A stretch of DNA of 64,000 nucleotides from Fidelibacterota bacterium (GTDB lineage Bacteria > Fidelibacterota > UBA8477 > JABMPR01), in assembly GCA_016844945.1 (NCBI GenBank), contig JAERTJ010000086.1, forward strand, positions 115,183 through 179,182, in the 5' to 3' direction. The notes under the pieces were generated by a model, which saw nothing but the letters and a program-made list of their open reading frames with translations, ran no database searches and was not told where the DNA came from. The position numbers were made by a program, and so were the translations under genes. Below are positions 26,681 to 33,436 of this stretch, piece by piece; position 1 is the first letter of the stretch, and every line of letters begins with the position of its first letter.

Positions 26681-28324
26681 TCACTTGTAGTATTCGTCCA
26701 AATAATCCTGAACCATTCTGGTGCCTGTATACTGGACACCGGTTTTAATGGATTCGCGGATCATATTGAGCCACTTGGTCTGGTCATCATAGTAAGTCGG
26801 GATAACTTGTTCTTCCAGCAAGCGGTAAAGATGATCTGCATCAGCTGCATCATTGGCATTTTCTGCATCACCGATTGCCCAGCCATTCACGCCATCTTCA
26901 CAAGCTTCTGCCCACCACCCATCCAGAATGGATAAGTTAGGGACACCGTTTAGAGTGGCTTTCATACCAGAAGTCCCAGATGCCTCATTGGGTCGAAGCG
27001 GTGTATTGAGCCAAACATCTACACCTGCGGTGATCAGATTTCCCAACCACATGTTATAATTTTCAAGGAAGATGATCTTGACGTCTCCAAGTAATTCCTT
27101 CGCCTGAAGTACGATGTCTCGGAGTATCTCCTTACCGTGATCATCTCTTGGGTGCGCTTTTCCTGCAAAAACAAACTGAACCTTGCCTTTTGCTATTTTG
27201 ACTAAGCGTTCCTTGTCATGGAAGATCAGGCGTGCGCGCTTGTACTCGGCAGCTCGCCTGGCAAACCCGATGGTCAGGGTTTTATTTGTAAGTGCACGTT
27301 GAGACTGAGAATTTGCATAGTCCAGAAGGAATTTTTTCTGTCCACGTTTAGCAAATAGCAACTCTTCATCAGGCACAGAGTCAACTTCCAGTAATCTTTG
27401 AGGATTTTCACGCCAACCAGGTAAGTTCCGATCAAAGACTTCTCTAAAAATCTTGCCCACCCAATAACGGTGGAATACACCGTTGGTCACATGACCTATT
27501 TTAAATTTTGGGAACTGCTCACGAGCGACTACACCGTGGAGATCAGACACGCCATTAGCGCTACGACTGAAGTAAAGACCCAATTCGGTCATATGAACCC
27601 GTCCATTCAGCACCATGGAGGGTAGATTTAATCCAGAAGGCAGCAAATCACCGATGAGACGCTTGACTCTATCCACAGCAAAATGATCATGACCAGCAGG
27701 AACAGGCGTGTGAGTGGTAAAATGGCAACGTTTCCGTACTTTATCTTCATCTCCTCCAAACTCACTTAACAATTCGAGAGTCAGAAATGAACAATGACCT
27801 TCATTCATATGATAGGTAGAAAAATCTTTGTATCCCAGCTTACGCAAGGCACGTACACCTGCAAAACCCAGAACAGCTTCCTGAAGGATACGATGGTCTT
27901 TGCCACCAGAATAAAGCCTCAGGGTTATATTCCGGTCATCAGAGTGATTCAGGTCTACATCTGTGTCCAGCAACAAGATGTCAATGGGTGTGCCTTTAAT
28001 ACCCTCAAAGGTGTATTTCCAGACCTGTACATGTACTTCACGTCCCCGCAATGTGAGGGTGATAGTTCCATCCAGCTTTTCCAGAAGGGGATCAGGTTCA
28101 AACCGAGGATAATTTTCAGTTTGATTCCCATCCTCATCCATTCTTTGTTTGAAATATCCCTCTTTGTACATCAGGGTCACTGCGACCATGTTTACATCGA
28201 GATCTGCGGCAGCCTTGATATGGTCACCTGCTAATATTCCAAGTCCCCCACTATATGTGTGCAGACTGGGTGAAATTCCAATTTCTGCACTGAAATAGGC
28301 TACAGTGGCTTGATCGTTTGACAT
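26681..28324 (-). CDS. glgP: Alpha-glucan (glycogen/maltodextrin) phosphorylase, short form
   Basis: YSGGLGILAGD, HMNEGH, FARRAAEYKR, EASGTSGMKA PLP site. Confidence 0.93.
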   Translation of the reverse strand: MSNDQATVAYFSAEIGISPSLHTYSGGLGILAGDHIKAAADLDVNMVAVTLMYKEGYFKQRMDEDGNQTENYPRFEPDPLLEKLDGTITLTLRGREVHVQVWKYTFEGIKGTPIDILLLDTDVDLNHSDDRNITLRLYSGGKDHRILQEAVLGFAGVRALRKLGYKDFSTYHMNEGHCSFLTLELLSEFGGDEDKVRKRCHFTTHTPVPAGHDHFAVDRVKRLIGDLLPSGLNLPSMVLNGRVHMTELGLYFSRSANGVSDLHGVVAREQFPKFKIGHVTNGVFHRYWVGKIFREVFDRNLPGWRENPQRLLEVDSVPDEELLFAKRGQKKFLLDYANSQSQRALTNKTLTIGFARRAAEYKRARLIFHDKERLVKIAKGKVQFVFAGKAHPRDDHGKEILRDIVLQAKELLGDVKIIFLENYNMWLGNLITAGVDVWLNTPLRPNEASGTSGMKATLNGVPNLSILDGWWAEACEDGVNGWAIGDAENANDAADADHLYRLLEEQVIPTYYDDQTKWLNMIRESIKTGVQYTGTRMVQDYLDEYYK

Positions 28325-28337
28325 TTATTCCTCGTAT

Positions 28338-30410
28338 TTAAGATTTGAATTTAGTGATGCTCAGAAGGATATCGATTTCGAATGATTCCCCTGGGTTAAG
28401 ATTTAACTGCCAGTGTGGCAATAAAGCTGATGCTTGATAGACGCGTTCGAATCCTGCTTCAGACATTGAAATGGTCTCAATGGGTGAGCGCCATAACTGG
28501 CTACTCTCTGAGAACTGAAGATTGATTTTAAAGTTATCCCACTCATTGACCAAGCTCACGTCCTCAATATCCGGGTCATCACCCTGGGAATTAAGGCTGC
28601 CGCTGTTCACGCCATTCAGTAGATAGTATCGGTCAGGTGAATTACCACCTAACAAGCCAAAATTGAATTCCAGTCCATAGCTTTGATTTACCGTTGATTC
28701 GCCGGCGTTTTCAACACTCACTTTTATTGCTAATTGATTGTCATGCAATTCAACGGTTTTATGAATATTCAATGTGGCAGATTCGCTGACAGCCTGACTT
28801 TGGATAGACACACCTGCTTCGTCTTGAGCCACACGGCTTGATTTGCTTGTAAAATTTTCTTCCAGGGTACCTCGATAGTGAGCATCCTGGGTTTGATCTG
28901 CTGAGAAAATGTGATCTATGAGACCATGACGTCTATATTGATCAACAAATAACTTATCCTGAAGTCCATCTTCTTTGGTTAAGACGATATCATGAATGGA
29001 TCCACCGGAAGCCTGGTTCTGGCTGGCATGAGCAAGCTTTTCGTGGTAGTGTTCGGAGTAACGCTGGACGTAATTTGTAACATTAAAATTTGAGGGTAGC
29101 CAGTCAATTTCTCGGATATGCCCCTGATCGGCAGATAGAAATACCTGCACATTATTACTCCTAAGCCTGTACTCACTTATCCCATCGCTATCCAGATCAG
29201 TCAGACCAGGAAAAACACCACCTGCTTCTACAAATGCTTCTTCAGCTTTGAGGAGGTGCTCATAGATTGCGTGTCTCAAATGAGGTAGATAGAGTCCACC
29301 AAATACGCCATGCCAATATGCACAATTGCACTGGGCTCTATACAAGTCGTCTCGAAGCGACTCAGGTATTCCACCTTTGCTCTCGAGTTGATGGAGATTT
29401 ATGGAGAGAAATTGTACACGCTTCTGCATCCAATTGGATTCTGGATACTTGGTAAAAAAGTTGCGCCACATCCCGCCTTTGATAAAGGGGCGACTTTGCT
29501 CTCCTTTTCCCTGTGAATTTAGATCGTGGACCAGGTGATCCATCTGTCGTCCCAGATTCGTAGGAAGTGTCCACTGGGACATTTCAAAATATGAAGAAGT
29601 GGGGAGATAGACCAGGTCTCTGGGAGCGTGACTCTCATGATATTGCTTAAATGTCGTGGTGCTCAACCAGTCCTGGTTCTCAGTTAATAGTGTAAAAAAT
29701 CTTTCCAGCCATTTTTGGCCGTATACAGTTTCCCAGGTTCCTGGCCAGATTCCAAACTTTTCACCATCATCAGCCATGACAATCAGGTTGTCAGCAGAAT
29801 CAGTTGCATAACTTCTGAGGATATCTATGGCTTGTTGTGGGTCCTCAAAGGGCATGGCATAGCGCATTTTCTGAGATATGGGAAAAACGCTAAGAACTTT
29901 ACCTTCCTGCTCAGTGTTGTAATATCCTCCCAAATCATTGGGGTCGACACCTGATGTGAGGAAGTGATAATCATCAACAACCATATAGTCTATATCAGAT
30001 TTACTGAGGCTCTGTGCCAGATGGGGTTCCCAAACACGCTCAGTGAGCCAGTTCCCCTTGACTTCATACCCCAAACGATCCTTTGCCCAGGCATTCATTT
30101 TCTGAATTTGCCCGACACGATCTGCCTCAGGAATCATGGCAAGAATGGGTTCATAGAACCCACCACCAATGACCTCAATATTGCCTCTTTCAACCAGTTT
30201 CTTAAACAGGTCAAGGACATCAGGTCGATGGATTTCCAGCCATTCAATCAAAGATCCACTAAAGTGAAATGCCATGCTGATATGAGGAAACTTGTCTAAT
30301 ACCTGAAGAAATGGTAAATAGGACTTGTCACATGCATGATGAAAGACATCATCAAAATTGCCAACAGGCTGGTGGTTATGAATTCCAAAAATGAACTGGA
30401 CTTTTTTCAT
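28338..30410 (-). CDS. GH57 4-alpha-glucanotransferase/alpha-amylase
   Basis: HNHQPVGN, WLTERVWEP, DDGEKFGIWP, QCNCAYWHGVFGGLYLPHLR. Confidence 0.9.
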   Translation of the reverse strand: MKKVQFIFGIHNHQPVGNFDDVFHHACDKSYLPFLQVLDKFPHISMAFHFSGSLIEWLEIHRPDVLDLFKKLVERGNIEVIGGGFYEPILAMIPEADRVGQIQKMNAWAKDRLGYEVKGNWLTERVWEPHLAQSLSKSDIDYMVVDDYHFLTSGVDPNDLGGYYNTEQEGKVLSVFPISQKMRYAMPFEDPQQAIDILRSYATDSADNLIVMADDGEKFGIWPGTWETVYGQKWLERFFTLLTENQDWLSTTTFKQYHESHAPRDLVYLPTSSYFEMSQWTLPTNLGRQMDHLVHDLNSQGKGEQSRPFIKGGMWRNFFTKYPESNWMQKRVQFLSINLHQLESKGGIPESLRDDLYRAQCNCAYWHGVFGGLYLPHLRHAIYEHLLKAEEAFVEAGGVFPGLTDLDSDGISEYRLRSNNVQVFLSADQGHIREIDWLPSNFNVTNYVQRYSEHYHEKLAHASQNQASGGSIHDIVLTKEDGLQDKLFVDQYRRHGLIDHIFSADQTQDAHYRGTLEENFTSKSSRVAQDEAGVSIQSQAVSESATLNIHKTVELHDNQLAIKVSVENAGESTVNQSYGLEFNFGLLGGNSPDRYYLLNGVNSGSLNSQGDDPDIEDVSLVNEWDNFKINLQFSESSQLWRSPIETISMSEAGFERVYQASALLPHWQLNLNPGESFEIDILLSITKFKS

Positions 30411-30464
30411 TATTCGAGGTTCCGGATTATGCACGGGTTTAAACGTAAAGTTCTAATAGACAAC

Positions 30465-30492
30465 AGAGCCGACTGCATTCACAGCCGGCTCT
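30465..30492 (-). terminator. Stem-loop after gap (weak terminator or stabiliser)
   Basis: AGAGCCGACTG...CAGCCGGCTCT with only a weak U tract. Confidence 0.5.
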
Positions 30493-30513
30493 ATTTATCA
30501 ACAAAGGGTTATT

Positions 30514-31515
30514 TTACATACCCTTGAACAAATTGATCAGGTCAACAACGCGGTTGGAATAGCCCCATTCGTTGTCATACCAGTTCAGTGTCTTGACGAT
30601 ACGGTTTCCAACAACTCGAGTATATGATGCATCATAAATTGAGGAGTATGGATTTCCGATGATATCAGAGGAAACAAGGTGATTCTCGTTATACTCTAAG
30701 ACATTCTTCAGACGATCGGTTGCTGTGGCTTCGCGAACAGCGGCATTGATATCTTCAACACTGACATTGCGATTAACTTCAACAATCAAATCAACAACAG
30801 AACCATCAGCGACAGGTACACGAGCAGCGATACCATCCAGTTTTCCCTTGAGTTCAGGAAGAACTTTTCCAACGGCGCGGGCTGCACCTGTTGTGGTTGG
30901 AATGATGTTCTCTGCAGCAGCACGGCTACGACGCCAGTCTGAGTGAGGTACATCCGCCAGACGCTGGTCATTTGTATATGCATGTGTGGTTGTCATAACA
31001 CCTTCAACGATACCAAATGCATCATTGAGAACCTTGGCCATTGGAGCCAGACAGTTTGTTGTACAACTGGCGTTGGAAACAATACGATGTTCTGGTTTCA
31101 GACCATCCTCGTTTACACCAAGTACAACGGTGTAATCTACATCATCCTTAGAAGGAACGGTGAGAATCACACGTTTGGCGCCAGCATCTAAATGAGCAGT
31201 CAATGCTTCTTTAGTTCTGAAAACACCTGTTGCTTCAATAACAACATCGATGTCAAGGTCAGCCCAGGGTAAATCACCAGGGTTGCGTTCACTCAACATT
31301 TTAACAGTATCATTTGAGGTATGGAGAACATCACCTTCAAAACGAACGTTCTTATCTCCAAATCCACCCATGACAGTATCATATTTCAGTAGATAGCCAA
31401 GCGCTTCATGATCGAACAGATCATTGATAGCTACGACATTGATATCGTCACGTTTATCTAAAATACGGAATACGGAACGACCGATACGCCCGAATCCATT
31501 AATGGCTACTCTCAT
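30514..31515 (-). CDS. gap: Type I glyceraldehyde-3-phosphate dehydrogenase
   Basis: GFGRIGR, NASCTTNCLAP, THAYT, TTGAA, RVP, WYDNEWGYS all intact; GGAGG RBS. Confidence 0.95.
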   Translation of the reverse strand: MRVAINGFGRIGRSVFRILDKRDDINVVAINDLFDHEALGYLLKYDTVMGGFGDKNVRFEGDVLHTSNDTVKMLSERNPGDLPWADLDIDVVIEATGVFRTKEALTAHLDAGAKRVILTVPSKDDVDYTVVLGVNEDGLKPEHRIVSNASCTTNCLAPMAKVLNDAFGIVEGVMTTTHAYTNDQRLADVPHSDWRRSRAAAENIIPTTTGAARAVGKVLPELKGKLDGIAARVPVADGSVVDLIVEVNRNVSVEDINAAVREATATDRLKNVLEYNENHLVSSDIIGNPYSSIYDASYTRVVGNRIVKTLNWYDNEWGYSNRVVDLINLFKGM

Positions 31516-32531
31516 GCAGCACCTCCTTCCACCCCGAGCTTAGCATAAGCAAGGGCTAGATCTACCAATCTCCCGGCCTGGCCGAGACTATTATCATACC
31601 AGCTAAGGGTTTTAACCATGCGTTTGCTTGATTTCATCGTACCCTTGGTGTCAAAAAGTAGAGAATGTGCGTTTCCAATAACATCACTTGAAACGATTGG
31701 ATCTTCTGTTACTTCAATATATCCTGCTAATGCACCACCAGCAGCCTTGCGCATGGCTTCATTAACTTCTTCGATTGTGGAGTCACCTTTGGTAAGCACG
31801 CAGGTCAAATCGAGGAGTGATCCCATAGGAACAGGTACATTCAGGGCTGAACCTTCGATTTTGCCTTCAAAGCGAGGTAGGATCTGTTCCATCCAGTATG
31901 GACTGATATTGACATTTGGAATGATGTTTTCTGCGGCAGAACGACTACGTCTAAAATCTGCTGCGGCAGTATCACGTAGGGGTTGATCACTGGTATATGC
32001 ATGGATAGTGGTCATCATGGCGTGTTCCACACCAAAAGCCTTATCCAGTGTATCCAGCATCATGGCCAACGCGTTGGTCGTGGCAGATGCAGCGGAAACA
32101 ATTTTATCACTGGCTTCCATGGTGTCTTCATTGACACCCATGACAATCACGCGATCAATATTATCCTGTGGCAATGAACCAAGGATCACACGTTTTGCAC
32201 CAGAATTCAAGTGTGCCTGCAGGGCTTCACGTGTGCGATATTTGTGGGTTGAATCAATAACAACATCCACATCAAAAGCATCCCAGGGAACATCTTTTGG
32301 CTCAACACCATGTATCAGGCGAGCTTTCTGATCACCAACGACCAGGAAGTTTCCTTCCAGGCTGGCATCAACTGGATCTCGTCCATCTGTTTTTAGCAAG
32401 TAGTGCAGAATATCGGTGCGACCGATATCGCTAATTGCAACAACTTCCATTTCAGGCTGGTTAAGGCTTAAGCGGTAGACATCTCTACCAATCTCACCAA
32501 ATCCCATCAGCCCGATTCTAATCTTACTCAT
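31512..32531 (-). CDS. GAPDH-like protein lacking catalytic Cys (probable pseudo-enzyme)
   Basis: Full-length GAPDH homology but SAASATTNAL, GFGEIGR, NVNISP, NVP and WYDNSLGQ; GGAGG RBS before ATG 32531. Confidence 0.88.
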   Translation of the reverse strand: MSKIRIGLMGFGEIGRDVYRLSLNQPEMEVVAISDIGRTDILHYLLKTDGRDPVDASLEGNFLVVGDQKARLIHGVEPKDVPWDAFDVDVVIDSTHKYRTREALQAHLNSGAKRVILGSLPQDNIDRVIVMGVNEDTMEASDKIVSAASATTNALAMMLDTLDKAFGVEHAMMTTIHAYTSDQPLRDTAAADFRRSRSAAENIIPNVNISPYWMEQILPRFEGKIEGSALNVPVPMGSLLDLTCVLTKGDSTIEEVNEAMRKAAGGALAGYIEVTEDPIVSSDVIGNAHSLLFDTKGTMKSSKRMVKTLSWYDNSLGQAGRLVDLALAYAKLGVEGGAA

Positions 32532-32602
32532 AGAATGTGCCTCCATTTCGATCCCGTTTGTGGGGGGAACGATTGTTTAAAGGTTAGATAAATATTCAAA
32601 GG

Positions 32603-33436
32603 TCATTTCTTCTTAAAGTGAATAACAGCTTCATGATCTTCACTGAGAAGATCATCCAGATTATGGATTTCACCATGGAGCATTTCCGCGATGACAGCAC
32701 CTAAGTCAAGATCATAGCGCTGTCCAAATAGGGTTAAATCAAGAATTATATAATTTAGGGCGATAGCTACAATGGCAGAATTTCTGGTCCAGGCTACCTT
32801 GTTGGTGGGCATCATTTCAACACCGCCCAATAGTGCGGAATCATGATCAACAACCAATAAGATTTTACTACTCCAAACATCTTCAAGCCGTTGGCTATCC
32901 AGGTTGTAGGCAAACACTGTCCCAATATCAGTCGGTACATCGCAGAACGAGAATATGACAATATCAACACCGCGCTTCTCTGCGTCCATGAGATCGGTGT
33001 ACAATTTTTGGTACTCTGTCAGCCAGATGGATAGATAAATGGATTTGTCAGCATTTTTGATCATGTGCCTGGCGCGATCAATCATGCTGTCATATCCGCG
33101 GATATTCCAGAGATCACCAACTTCAAGGTCTGTATTCACATTTTTCAAGGAATCCTTGAGTGTGTCGAGGTTGGTGGTAAAGTTGGTTTCCAGAACGTTG
33201 AATAAATGATCTGGTGGTAGTGGTATATAGCGTGTTGGATTAGAGTCCACACAACTGACCATTCCTGTACTTTCCAGACGCTTCAGAATTTCATAAATTG
33301 CTGAACGAGGAATCCCTGATTTTCCACTGATTTCATATCCTGTAGCTGGATTATTTTGCAATAAGCTAAGGTAAGTTTTAGCCTCGTTGGATGTGAATCC
33401 GAATGATTTGAGAGCGGGGAGTAGCTTTTCGTTCAT
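32603..33436 (-). CDS. TrmB family transcriptional regulator
   Basis: FGFTSNEAKTYLSLL...ATGYEISGKSGIPRSAIYEILKRL wHTH plus C-terminal effector domain. Confidence 0.9.
   Translation of the reverse strand: MNEKLLPALKSFGFTSNEAKTYLSLLQNNPATGYEISGKSGIPRSAIYEILKRLESTGMVSCVDSNPTRYIPLPPDHLFNVLETNFTTNLDTLKDSLKNVNTDLEVGDLWNIRGYDSMIDRARHMIKNADKSIYLSIWLTEYQKLYTDLMDAEKRGVDIVIFSFCDVPTDIGTVFAYNLDSQRLEDVWSSKILLVVDHDSALLGGVEMMPTNKVAWTRNSAIVAIALNYIILDLTLFGQRYDLDLGAVIAEMLHGEIHNLDDLLSEDHEAVIHFKKK

Follow-up and report, generated by a model that had tools for sequence, protein, structure and literature searches.

Few enzymes have been studied as intensively as GAPDH, which textbooks present as a homotetramer built from four copies of a single active subunit. 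The window analyzed here, a stretch of 64,000 nucleotides of DNA from a marine Fidelibacterota bacterium, carries a gene for a GAPDH paralogue that has lost its catalytic residues and whose stop codon overlaps the start codon of an intact gap gene. The occurrence of this overlapping pair in about 200 species across many phyla suggests an undescribed two-subunit form of the textbook enzyme, in which the upstream gene product probably joins a hetero-oligomeric GAPDH as a subunit without catalytic function, although there are no binding, activity or expression data that bear on this assignment.

Catalytic residues are lost from the upstream protein of an overlapping pair

The two GAPDH-family open reading frames are located on the minus strand, with the upstream frame extending from 32546 or 32531 to 31512 and the downstream gap from 31515 to 30514 (Table 1). 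The sequence-only reading of this locus had described tandem full-length GAPDH homologues with an ATGA overlap and a GGAGG ribosome binding site inside the first gene, and all of these elements were seen where it had placed them. The ATG of gap (31515..31513) overlaps the TGA of the upstream gene (31514..31512), and the GGAGG preceding gap falls within the upstream gene, where GGA GGT specifies the C-terminal Gly-Gly pair. The longer version of the upstream frame, from 32546, begins within the ribosome binding site of the ATG at 32531. The latter was adopted as the start because homologues of 338 amino acids possess the N-terminus M-x-K-I-R-I-G and because this ATG has a GGAGG of its own. Scanning of the locus for promoters and terminators revealed sites that were no more numerous than in shuffled sequence.

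Table 1. Positions of the gene pair, its translation signals and the altered codons in the window
Feature	Position	Strand	Remarks
Upstream GAPDH-like gene without catalytic residues	31512..32531	-	339 aa + stop; Gp_dh_N and Gp_dh_C
Canonical type I gap	30514..31515	-	333 aa; SNASCTTNC, His176, Arg195, TTTGAA, Arg231, WYDNEWGY
ATGA overlap of upstream stop and gap start	31512..31515	-	Translational coupling; plus-strand letters 'tcat'
GGAGG Shine-Dalgarno sequence of gap	31522..31526	-	6 nt before gap ATG
GGAGG Shine-Dalgarno sequence of upstream gene	32540..32544	-	8 nt before ATG at 32531
GCC (Ala) codon at catalytic Cys149 position	32082..32084	-	Cys in 0/78 aligned family members
GCG (Ala) codon at Cys153 position	32070..32072	-	Codon reading
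AAT (Asn) codon at Arg231 position	31839..31841	-	Asn in 78/78 family members

The upstream protein and the neighboring gap product share 43% identity across 327 residues (E 8e-91) and both carry the Gp_dh_N and Gp_dh_C domains, with the former matching PF00044 at 71.5 bits and PF02800 at 153.2 bits. Whereas the gap product scored 435 bits with the NCBIfam GAPDH-I model (TIGR01534), the upstream protein attained 291.1 bits and so did not reach the cut-off of 367.2 bits; it also was under the cut-off for all 11 NCBIfam families among the matches listed. The Epd and ArsJ-associated GAPDH families show full-length homology to the upstream protein, which scored far under the cut-offs for both (243 versus 539 and 229 versus 450, respectively). 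As far as is known, members of these two families retain the catalytic cysteine.

The SNASCTTNC motif of the gap product is SAASATTNA in the upstream protein, with Ala150 at the position of Cys149 and Ala154 at that of Cys153. Furthermore, GFGRIGR is replaced by GFGEIGR, the phosphate loop TTTGAA by NVNISP, RVP by NVP such that Asn231 substitutes for Arg231, and WYDNEWGY by WYDNSLGQ. The HAYT motif, the S-loop RRSRSAAENIIP and IVSSD are retained. Every substitution and retained motif listed in the sequence-only reading is present in the window sequences, and its doubt that a single read error could be responsible was upheld: the GCC and GCG codons each are at least two changes from TGY, and the absence of Cys149 and presence of Asn231 in 78/78 aligned family members exclude chance or read error.

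Residue states across the upstream family

Residue states were counted in 78 aligned upstream copies, which constitute the sub-clade of the window, and in their 78 partner gap products. Position 149 is occupied by Ala in 52 upstream copies, Ser in 24, and Pro and Gly in one each, but never by Cys; Arg231 is exchanged for Asn and Gly209 is replaced in all 78. In contrast, Cys149, Gly209 and Arg231 all are present in every one of the partner gap products. His176, Ser148 and Thr150 are invariant in the upstream copies (78/78), and Thr179 and Arg195 each are found in 74/78. Among the residues of the NAD site, Gly7, Gly9 and an acidic residue (Asp or Glu) at position 32 are universal (78/78), Gly12 is present in 48/78, and conservation is relaxed at the nicotinamide-holding positions (Asn313 in 33/78, Tyr317 in 0/78). 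The binding of NAD by the upstream protein is uncertain as the third Rossmann glycine is gone in 30/78 members, but the adenosine part of NAD(H) may still bind since Gly7 and Gly9, the first two Rossmann glycines, persist along with the acidic residue 32; no binding data are available on this point.

Retention of the cysteine in close homologues, which would have spoken against the sequence-only reading, was not seen: Cys149 is retained in none of the 120 closest database relatives of the upstream protein and in none of the 78 aligned copies. In the wider upstream clade, 14/106 members still have Cys149. All 14 of these proteins lack Gly209, 13 also lack Arg231, and all possess His176. As the members that keep Cys149 already are without Gly209, the phosphate site seems, from the sequences alone, to have been lost before the cysteine, with loss of the latter following in several lineages.

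An active upstream enzyme with altered chemistry, in which Ser148 would act with His176 or the Cys149 retained in some lineages would be used, is improbable, and little credence can be given to its acting on a substrate that is different or lacks the phosphate, or to hydrolysis of 1,3-bisphosphoglycerate as its reaction. The invariance of Ser148, Thr150 and His176 within the sub-clade of the window would accord with retained chemistry, as would the uniform, non-random Asn231 and the coexistence of Cys149 and His176 in the 14/106 clade members. However, position 149 varies not only within the sub-clade (Ala, Ser, Pro, Gly) but also elsewhere in the clade, where Ile, Ser, Pro, Asn and Val were found in the copies from scan 2 (n = 65). 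Moreover, His176 is changed to Lys in 15/65 of the latter copies, the nicotinamide-holding residues are relaxed as described above, and the entire upstream clade has no catalytic set in common.

The S-loop also was considered in relation to cofactor choice. The idea that an S-loop without Pro188 opens the cofactor pocket of the partner to NADP was dropped as a general mechanism: 57/89 upstream copies have Pro188 and just 22 have Ala at this position, which makes the idea sub-clade-specific at best.

Conservation, adjacency and phylogeny of the pair

The sequence-only reading had interpreted the upstream gene as a conserved pseudo-enzyme, an interpretation that would be undermined by frameshift decay in close homologues or by a lack of co-occurrence with gap. 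Neither was observed. The median pairwise dN/dS among nine Marinimicrobia sequences was 0.042 for the upstream gene (35/36 pairs usable) and 0.032 for gap (33/36), revealing purifying selection on the former. The upstream frame was open in 80/80 loci from scan 1, with no frameshifted copy among them. A full canonical gap was positioned directly downstream on the same strand in 77 of these loci, and the N-terminus of gap was present in the other three which end at a contig edge; thus, gap directly follows the copy without cysteine in 80/80 loci. Together with the missing catalytic residues, these features bear out the pseudo-enzyme interpretation. A decaying, functionless duplicate or a sequencing or assembly artefact might be invoked from the loss of the residues for GAPDH chemistry, but already is contradicted and is scarcely conceivable in view of the open frames and the dN/dS of ~0.04, the 52–92% identity of upstream proteins across many phyla, their placement in one deep clade, and codon changes that are not explicable as single read errors.

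Three scans yielded 200 distinct pairs of upstream gene and gap under 17 phylum labels, and an upstream-type copy without gap was found in none of the scans. The two genes of a pair are overlapping or abutting in 162 cases among the 200, separated by 1–5 nt in 30, and more distant in eight. The overlap is of 4 nt in 132/200 distinct pairs, as well as in 68/77 scan 1 loci, and a Shine-Dalgarno-like tetramer is located 3–20 nt upstream of gap in 188/200. The remaining neighbor genes are variable, with the largest neighbor cluster present in 25/77 loci. A second profile search of 201 genomes returned the same places as the earlier profile search and no new carriers. The pair provides the only PF02800 matches in 6/10 genomes checked, including a genome of 1.1 Mb. 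Two double-GAPDH open reading frames of ~675 amino acids, each with an upstream-type half and a canonical half, were noted among 18 longer proteins and were rejected as natural fusions. The upstream half of these frames can be aligned only as far as approximately residue 245, beyond which comes an Arg-rich non-homologous stretch, and this gives them the appearance of frameshift read-through, and no convincing natural fusion was found among the 18 longer hits.

All 89 upstream copies that were placed in a FastTree phylogeny of 300 rows fell on one side of a branch with support of 100, and the upstream clade was recovered with SH-aLRT values of 100 under both LG+G4 and LG+C20 (IQ-TREE, 80 rows). 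The grouping of copies into sub-clades is repeated between the upstream tree and the downstream one. The 89 partner gap products formed one bipartition in the FastTree analysis (support 94), but only 22/26 remained together in the mixture-model tree (support 83). Thus, the monophyly of the partner gap products is not robust.

Predicted complex and comparison with known systems

In the favored model the two genes would share a bicistronic message with translational coupling, and the upstream protein most likely would assemble with canonical GAPDH, probably as an alpha2beta2 tetramer of GAPDH architecture. Catalysis would be performed by the gap-encoded subunits only, and the dead subunit, which keeps the GAPDH fold, S-loop and dimer interface, would serve as a structural or regulatory partner. 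That the two proteins bind, in what stoichiometry and with what consequence, if any, for activity is inferred, and translationally coupled genes can also encode proteins that do not interact.

Modeling of the heterodimer gave an ipSAE of 0.77 (0.77, 0.80, and 0.76 in three runs) compared to 0.00 for the best control, with at least 97% of contacts shared between runs and a partner pLDDT of at least 90. This mark was reached by 58/80 solved complexes and by 2/110 mismatched pairs. However, the score does not distinguish hetero- from homo-oligomers and may only echo the solved GAPDH homotetramers, and the model therefore does not establish physical association. The AlphaFold2 monomer model of the upstream protein displayed pLDDT values <50 only in the S-loop (180–202) and the C-terminal tail (335–339), a pattern consistent with an element that is ordered upon assembly. 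The predicted interface of the upstream protein is conserved: entropy was 0.79 at its 46 positions compared to 1.39 at the other 293 (p = 3e-5), and across the whole clade conservation of at least 90% was reached at 18/46 interface positions versus 35/293 elsewhere (Fisher p = 2e-5). As the conserved interface residues mostly are identical in the upstream protein and the gap product, this pattern is equally compatible with homo-oligomers of each protein. The partner gap product has only four clade-specific signature positions, none of which is in the predicted interface, and so nothing marks it as incapable of forming homotetramers.

These interface data, in which the residues match ordinary GAPDH homo-oligomers and the partner bears no interface-specific signature, also would suit a stand-alone, non-catalytic homo-oligomer of the upstream protein that moonlights in NAD(H) or metabolite sensing or in nucleic acid binding, and that is co-regulated with gap without being bound to its product. 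The conserved fold, first two Rossmann glycines and acidic residue 32 are compatible with such a role. Nevertheless, it is an unlikely one: the two genes stay together, with coupled stop and start codons, in the 200 distinct loci, no upstream-type copy devoid of gap was found, the 1.1-Mb genome retains both genes, and the putative ligand site varies within the clade at both His176 and Arg195 (in the copies from scan 2, H176K in 15/65 and Arg195 replaced in 40/65). Within the hetero-oligomer model, the further possibility can be advanced only tentatively that the GAPDH of carrier lineages is an obligate alpha2beta2 complex, in which the dead subunit either is needed for assembly or activity in the manner of a prozyme, or fixes half-of-the-sites behavior and sets redox or cofactor control.

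The upstream protein shares the two-domain fold of the type I GAPDH homotetramer of Geobacillus stearothermophilus (PDB 1gd1; engineered C149A variant, 1npt), and has the S-loop, His176 and dimer-interface residues in common with canonical type I GAPDH. In contrast to the latter, it naturally lacks Cys149, Cys153, the phosphate-loop Thr-Gly and Arg231, and always precedes a second, intact gap. Its best PDB matches, at about 253–257 bits, are ordinary or engineered GAPDHs, and a sequence search disclosed no natural member of the upstream clade in the PDB (~257 bits at best versus the 360–640 bits of family members in BLASTP with the upstream protein as query). The chloroplast A2B2 GAPDH of land plants is a heterotetramer of the paralogous subunits GapA and GapB (10.1101/2021.11.21.469434, PMC11025378) and in this respect resembles the complex proposed here. 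Both plant subunits are catalytic, whereas one subunit of the window pair is dead. GapB is set apart by its C-terminal extension, which bears a Cys pair and is redox-sensitive; the upstream protein instead lacks the catalytic Cys and ends in a short tail, AKLGVEGGAA, without Cys. Trypanosomatid 'prozymes' are catalytically dead paralogues that heterodimerize with and activate AdoMetDC (PMC6221367), and are similar insofar as a dead paralogue is under selection beside an active relative. They differ in belonging to another enzyme family, in being eukaryotic and in not being operon-encoded, and there are no data on activation of the gap product by the dead copy. A natural bacterial GAPDH partner without the cysteine was not found described in the open-access full-text literature (supplements excluded) or in the PDB, nor is such a dead subunit mentioned in the accessible portion of a review of the GapDH superfamily (PMC12041015).

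If the favored model is correct, a conserved dead paralogue that always is co-translated would add a class of subunit to GAPDH and would be a bacterial, operon-encoded counterpart to the eukaryotic prozymes. Carriers of the pair include the abundant marine Marinimicrobia and Actinomarinales as well as a cultured organism, Exilibacterium tricleocarpae R142. Were the obligate alpha2beta2 complex to be confirmed, an undescribed heteromeric GAPDH would run central glycolysis and gluconeogenesis under 17 phylum labels, since 6/10 genomes examined have no GAPDH besides the pair. The annotation of gap would change, as the upstream copies presently are labeled as GAPDH, 'aldehyde dehydrogenase' or hypothetical, and this labeling inflates the number of GAPDH copies counted when the metabolism of uncultured marine and sediment bacteria is reconstructed. 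The pair also would offer a natural system in which to study half-of-the-sites reactivity and cooperativity in GAPDH.

Organization of the gene pair

Two GAPDH homologues lie in tandem in the window, an upstream paralogue without the catalytic Cys149 (the dead copy) and a canonical gap directly downstream. The sequence-only reading had described an ATGA overlap and an internal GGAGG for this pair, and both are present on the minus strand, as are all of the substitutions that it named; the dead copy reads GCC and GCG where the two Cys codons would stand. The names of its close relatives assign the source organism to Marinimicrobia. The start of the upstream gene was placed at 32531 because homologues (338 aa) begin M-x-K-I-R-I-G and a GGAGG stands 8 nt ahead of this ATG.

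Features of the gene pair and its neighbors in the window
Feature	Position	Strand	Remarks
TrmB-family sugar regulator	33436..32603	minus	upstream neighbor of the dead copy
Upstream GAPDH-family ORF	32546..31512	minus	longest reading frame
Upstream gene, preferred start	ATG at 32531	minus	339 aa; GGAGG 8 nt ahead and homologue N-termini
GGAGG ahead of gap	31526..31522	minus	6 nt before gap ATG, within terminal Gly-Gly codons of upstream gene
ATGA stop/start overlap of dead copy and gap	31515..31512	minus	sequence
Downstream gap	31515..30514	minus	333 aa
GH57 alpha-amylase/4-alpha-glucanotransferase	30434..28338	minus	gene after gap
Alpha-glucan phosphorylase	28324..26681	minus	gene after GH57

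Both proteins possess Gp_dh_N and Gp_dh_C domains and share 43% identity across 327 residues. The window gap exceeds the NCBIfam GAPDH-I equivalog cut-off (435 vs. 367 bits); the dead copy falls below it (291 vs. 367 bits) and reaches the cut-off of no other NCBIfam family. No natural member of the dead-copy family was found in the PDB, where GAPDHs of G. stearothermophilus, ordinary or engineered, match best (about 257 bits). The same-strand run that holds the pair (26681-33436) looks like a cluster for glucan breakdown and glycolysis. The window assembly, which is 90.7% complete with 6% contamination, carries two further GAPDH fragments at the ends of contigs C175 (locus L002) and C33 (locus L004). 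A canonical C-terminal fragment of 219 aa has 56% identity to the window gap, and a fragment of 104 aa has about 48% identity to each window protein; they may represent a second gap or contamination.

Conservation of the dead copy and its adjacency to gap

The expectation that close homologues would keep the Cys-less motif was borne out: of 7582 significant database matches the best 120, with 56-100% identity to the dead copy, all lack the catalytic Cys (114 read by pattern, 6 by eye). Residue states were compared in an alignment of 78 upstream copies and their 78 partner gaps. Position 149 is Ala in 52 upstream copies, Ser in 24, and Pro and Gly in one each, and is Cys in all partner gaps. 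Position 231 is Asn in 78/78 upstream copies vs. Arg in 78/78 partners, and Gly209 is substituted in every aligned upstream copy. Ser148, Thr150 and His176 are retained throughout (78/78), and Thr179 and Arg195 in 74/78 each. Residues G7, G9 and the acidic residue 32 likewise are invariably present (78/78), the third Rossmann glycine is found in only 48/78, and the nicotinamide-side residues are relaxed, Asn313 being retained in 33/78 and Tyr317 in none. A repurposed enzyme, a reading which has to accommodate both the retained and the relaxed positions, is considered improbable.

Median pairwise dN/dS among nine Marinimicrobia sequences was 0.042 for the dead copy (35/36 pairs usable) and 0.032 for gap (33/36 pairs). 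The values are rough because dS is about 1.3, near saturation. Despite this, the dead copy is clearly constrained, and the possibility that it is a functionless relic, on which the same values bear, is given almost no weight.

A family profile was scanned against species-representative genomes, giving 599 matched stretches with 452 relatives among them, and the 80 best loci were retained. In 77 of these the gene directly downstream on the same strand is a canonical gap with 68-95% identity to that of the window; in the remaining three the contigs end early with the gap N-terminus still present. The proposal that the Cys-less copy always sits upstream of gap thus holds in this set. The two genes overlap by 4 nt at 68 of the 77 junctions and by 1 nt at five (the other four being -10, +2, +2, and +15), and a GGAGG-like sequence precedes gap at nearly all of them. 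No further neighbor gene is conserved: the largest neighbor cluster is present in 25/77 loci, and the TrmB and GH57 neighbors of the window each occur in only nine, all closer relatives. As flanking genes also lie on the opposite strand in several loci, the pair alone is the conserved unit. SD-led initiation is known to be little used in Bacteroidota. Bacteroidales/Bacteroidota loci (L018-L070) have a strong AAAGGAGGT Shine-Dalgarno sequence roughly 7 nt ahead of the gap start codon, within Lys-Gly-Gly codons of the upstream gene; coupling, or transfer of the operon, may account for this nucleotide-level constraint (GGA GGN).

Ten genomes to which the loci led were searched with PF02800, and the pair was the only match in six: G001 (Binatia), G003 and G004 (Fidelibacterota), G206 (Acidimicrobiia), G208 (Acidobacteriota), and the 1.1-Mb G209 (Actinomarinales). 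Between one and four further GAPDHs are present in each of the remaining genomes. Within the phylum of the window, 120 of 201 sampled genomes gave a match at E <= 1e-95; 32 of these, counted by hand, showed only a gap-level match (about 1e-96 to 1e-103), leaving the dead copy in 88/201. It occurs in most genomes of families f1 (22/25) and f19 (19/20) of this sample and was not found in f6 (0/33), f9 (0/30), or f11 (0/13); a second profile (A5) added no carriers. A single gap in 27/33 genomes of family f6 scores like partner gaps (E about 1e-100 with profile A2 and about 1e-117 with A5), and the upstream gene may have been lost secondarily there.

The wider clade and the likely order of residue losses

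Cys149 is absent from 21 of 127 near-full-length 50%-identity representatives related to the dead copy. Two groups of these Cys149-less representatives served as seeds for further scans, which gave 65 and 72 additional tandem pairs, recorded under Acidobacteriota, Actinomycetota (Acidimicrobiia, Actinomarinales), Thermodesulfobacteriota, Planctomycetota, further Marinimicrobia, and others. With duplicates taken out, the three scans comprise 200 distinct pairs; 17 phylum labels are named among them, and for MAGs some labels may be wrong. The genes overlap or abut in 162 pairs, are 1-5 nt apart in 30 and further apart in eight, and an SD-like tetramer precedes gap in 188. Scan loci without a pair were canonical-only matches, too short or cut by a contig end, or broken; L165, L167, L168, L171, L173, and three Bacillaceae loci were rejected as pair carriers as they hold canonical gaps only. 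In two long-read MAG records (L147, L172) frame breaks fragment the downstream gap and, in L172, also interrupt the upstream copy, which could be assembly indel errors or real breaks. Database proteins P0121 (2089 aa) and P0157 (1455 aa) contain several GAPDH units in tandem, the former with four catalytic motifs in which Cys is present.

In a 300-row FastTree phylogeny one bipartition (support 100) unites all 89 upstream copies with 16 Cys-less representatives and P0146, a protein with Cys149 retained and Ser in place of Arg231; another (support 94) unites all 89 downstream partners with four representatives. An 80-row IQ-TREE analysis gathered the 26 upstream copies on the same side of a branch (SH-aLRT 100) under both LG+G4 and a C20 mixture, the latter as a quick tree. 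The partner gaps were less clear there (a clade of 22/26, support 83), and partner gaps may be hidden among the representatives whose context is unknown. Cys149 is kept in 14 of the 106 upstream-clade members; Gly209 is gone from all 14 and Arg231 from 13, locus L115 alone retaining the latter. Elsewhere in the clade His176 is changed to Lys in 15/65 copies and Arg195 is replaced in 40/65. The likely order is an old duplication followed by loss of the substrate-phosphate site, with the other catalytic residues decaying independently thereafter. Four Cys149-less representatives (P0155, P0187, P0225, P0265) fall outside the upstream clade among canonical GAPDHs, with Arg231 kept in the first three and Ser in P0265; these may be independent cysteine losses or errors.

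Inferred association of the dead copy with gap

The heterodimer was modeled from paired alignments A2 and A3 in three runs with three controls. The ipSAE was 0.77 (runs 0.77, 0.80, and 0.76) vs. 0.00 for the best control, with contact agreement of at least 97% and partner pLDDT of at least 90; the mark used is passed by 58/80 solved complexes and 2/110 mismatched pairs. The model thus passed its controls, but because it reproduces the large interface of sheet and S-loop that GAPDH dimers are known for, the pass may only mirror likeness to solved homotetramers. The AF2 monomer of the dead copy has a mean pLDDT of 87.9, with values below 50 confined to the S-loop (180-202) and C-terminal tail (335-339).

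Predicted interface positions of the dead copy are more conserved than the rest (entropy 0.79 vs. 1.39, p = 3e-5), which was not the case for those of gap (0.63 vs. 0.81, p = 0.45), and 18/46 interface positions in the upstream clade are at least 90% conserved vs. 35/293 elsewhere. Several findings speak against an obligate complex: most of the conserved interface residues are identical in the two proteins, the four clade-specific partner-gap positions (M49, V120, A187, V189) lie outside the predicted interface in the cofactor and S-loop region, and no credible natural fusion of the two was found among 18 longer proteins. A stand-alone non-catalytic protein is considered unlikely; no solitary upstream-type copy occurred among the loci of the three scans.

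No description of such a non-catalytic GAPDH subunit was found in the open-access full-text literature, in passages of a 2025 superfamily review (PMC12041015), in NCBIfam, or in the PDB. The dead GAPDH paralogue upstream of gap is real. All of the available comparative tests, conservation and adjacency included, support the proposal of a conserved pseudo-enzyme that partners gap; on balance, the dead copy and gap probably form a hetero-oligomer, both binding and effect being inferred.
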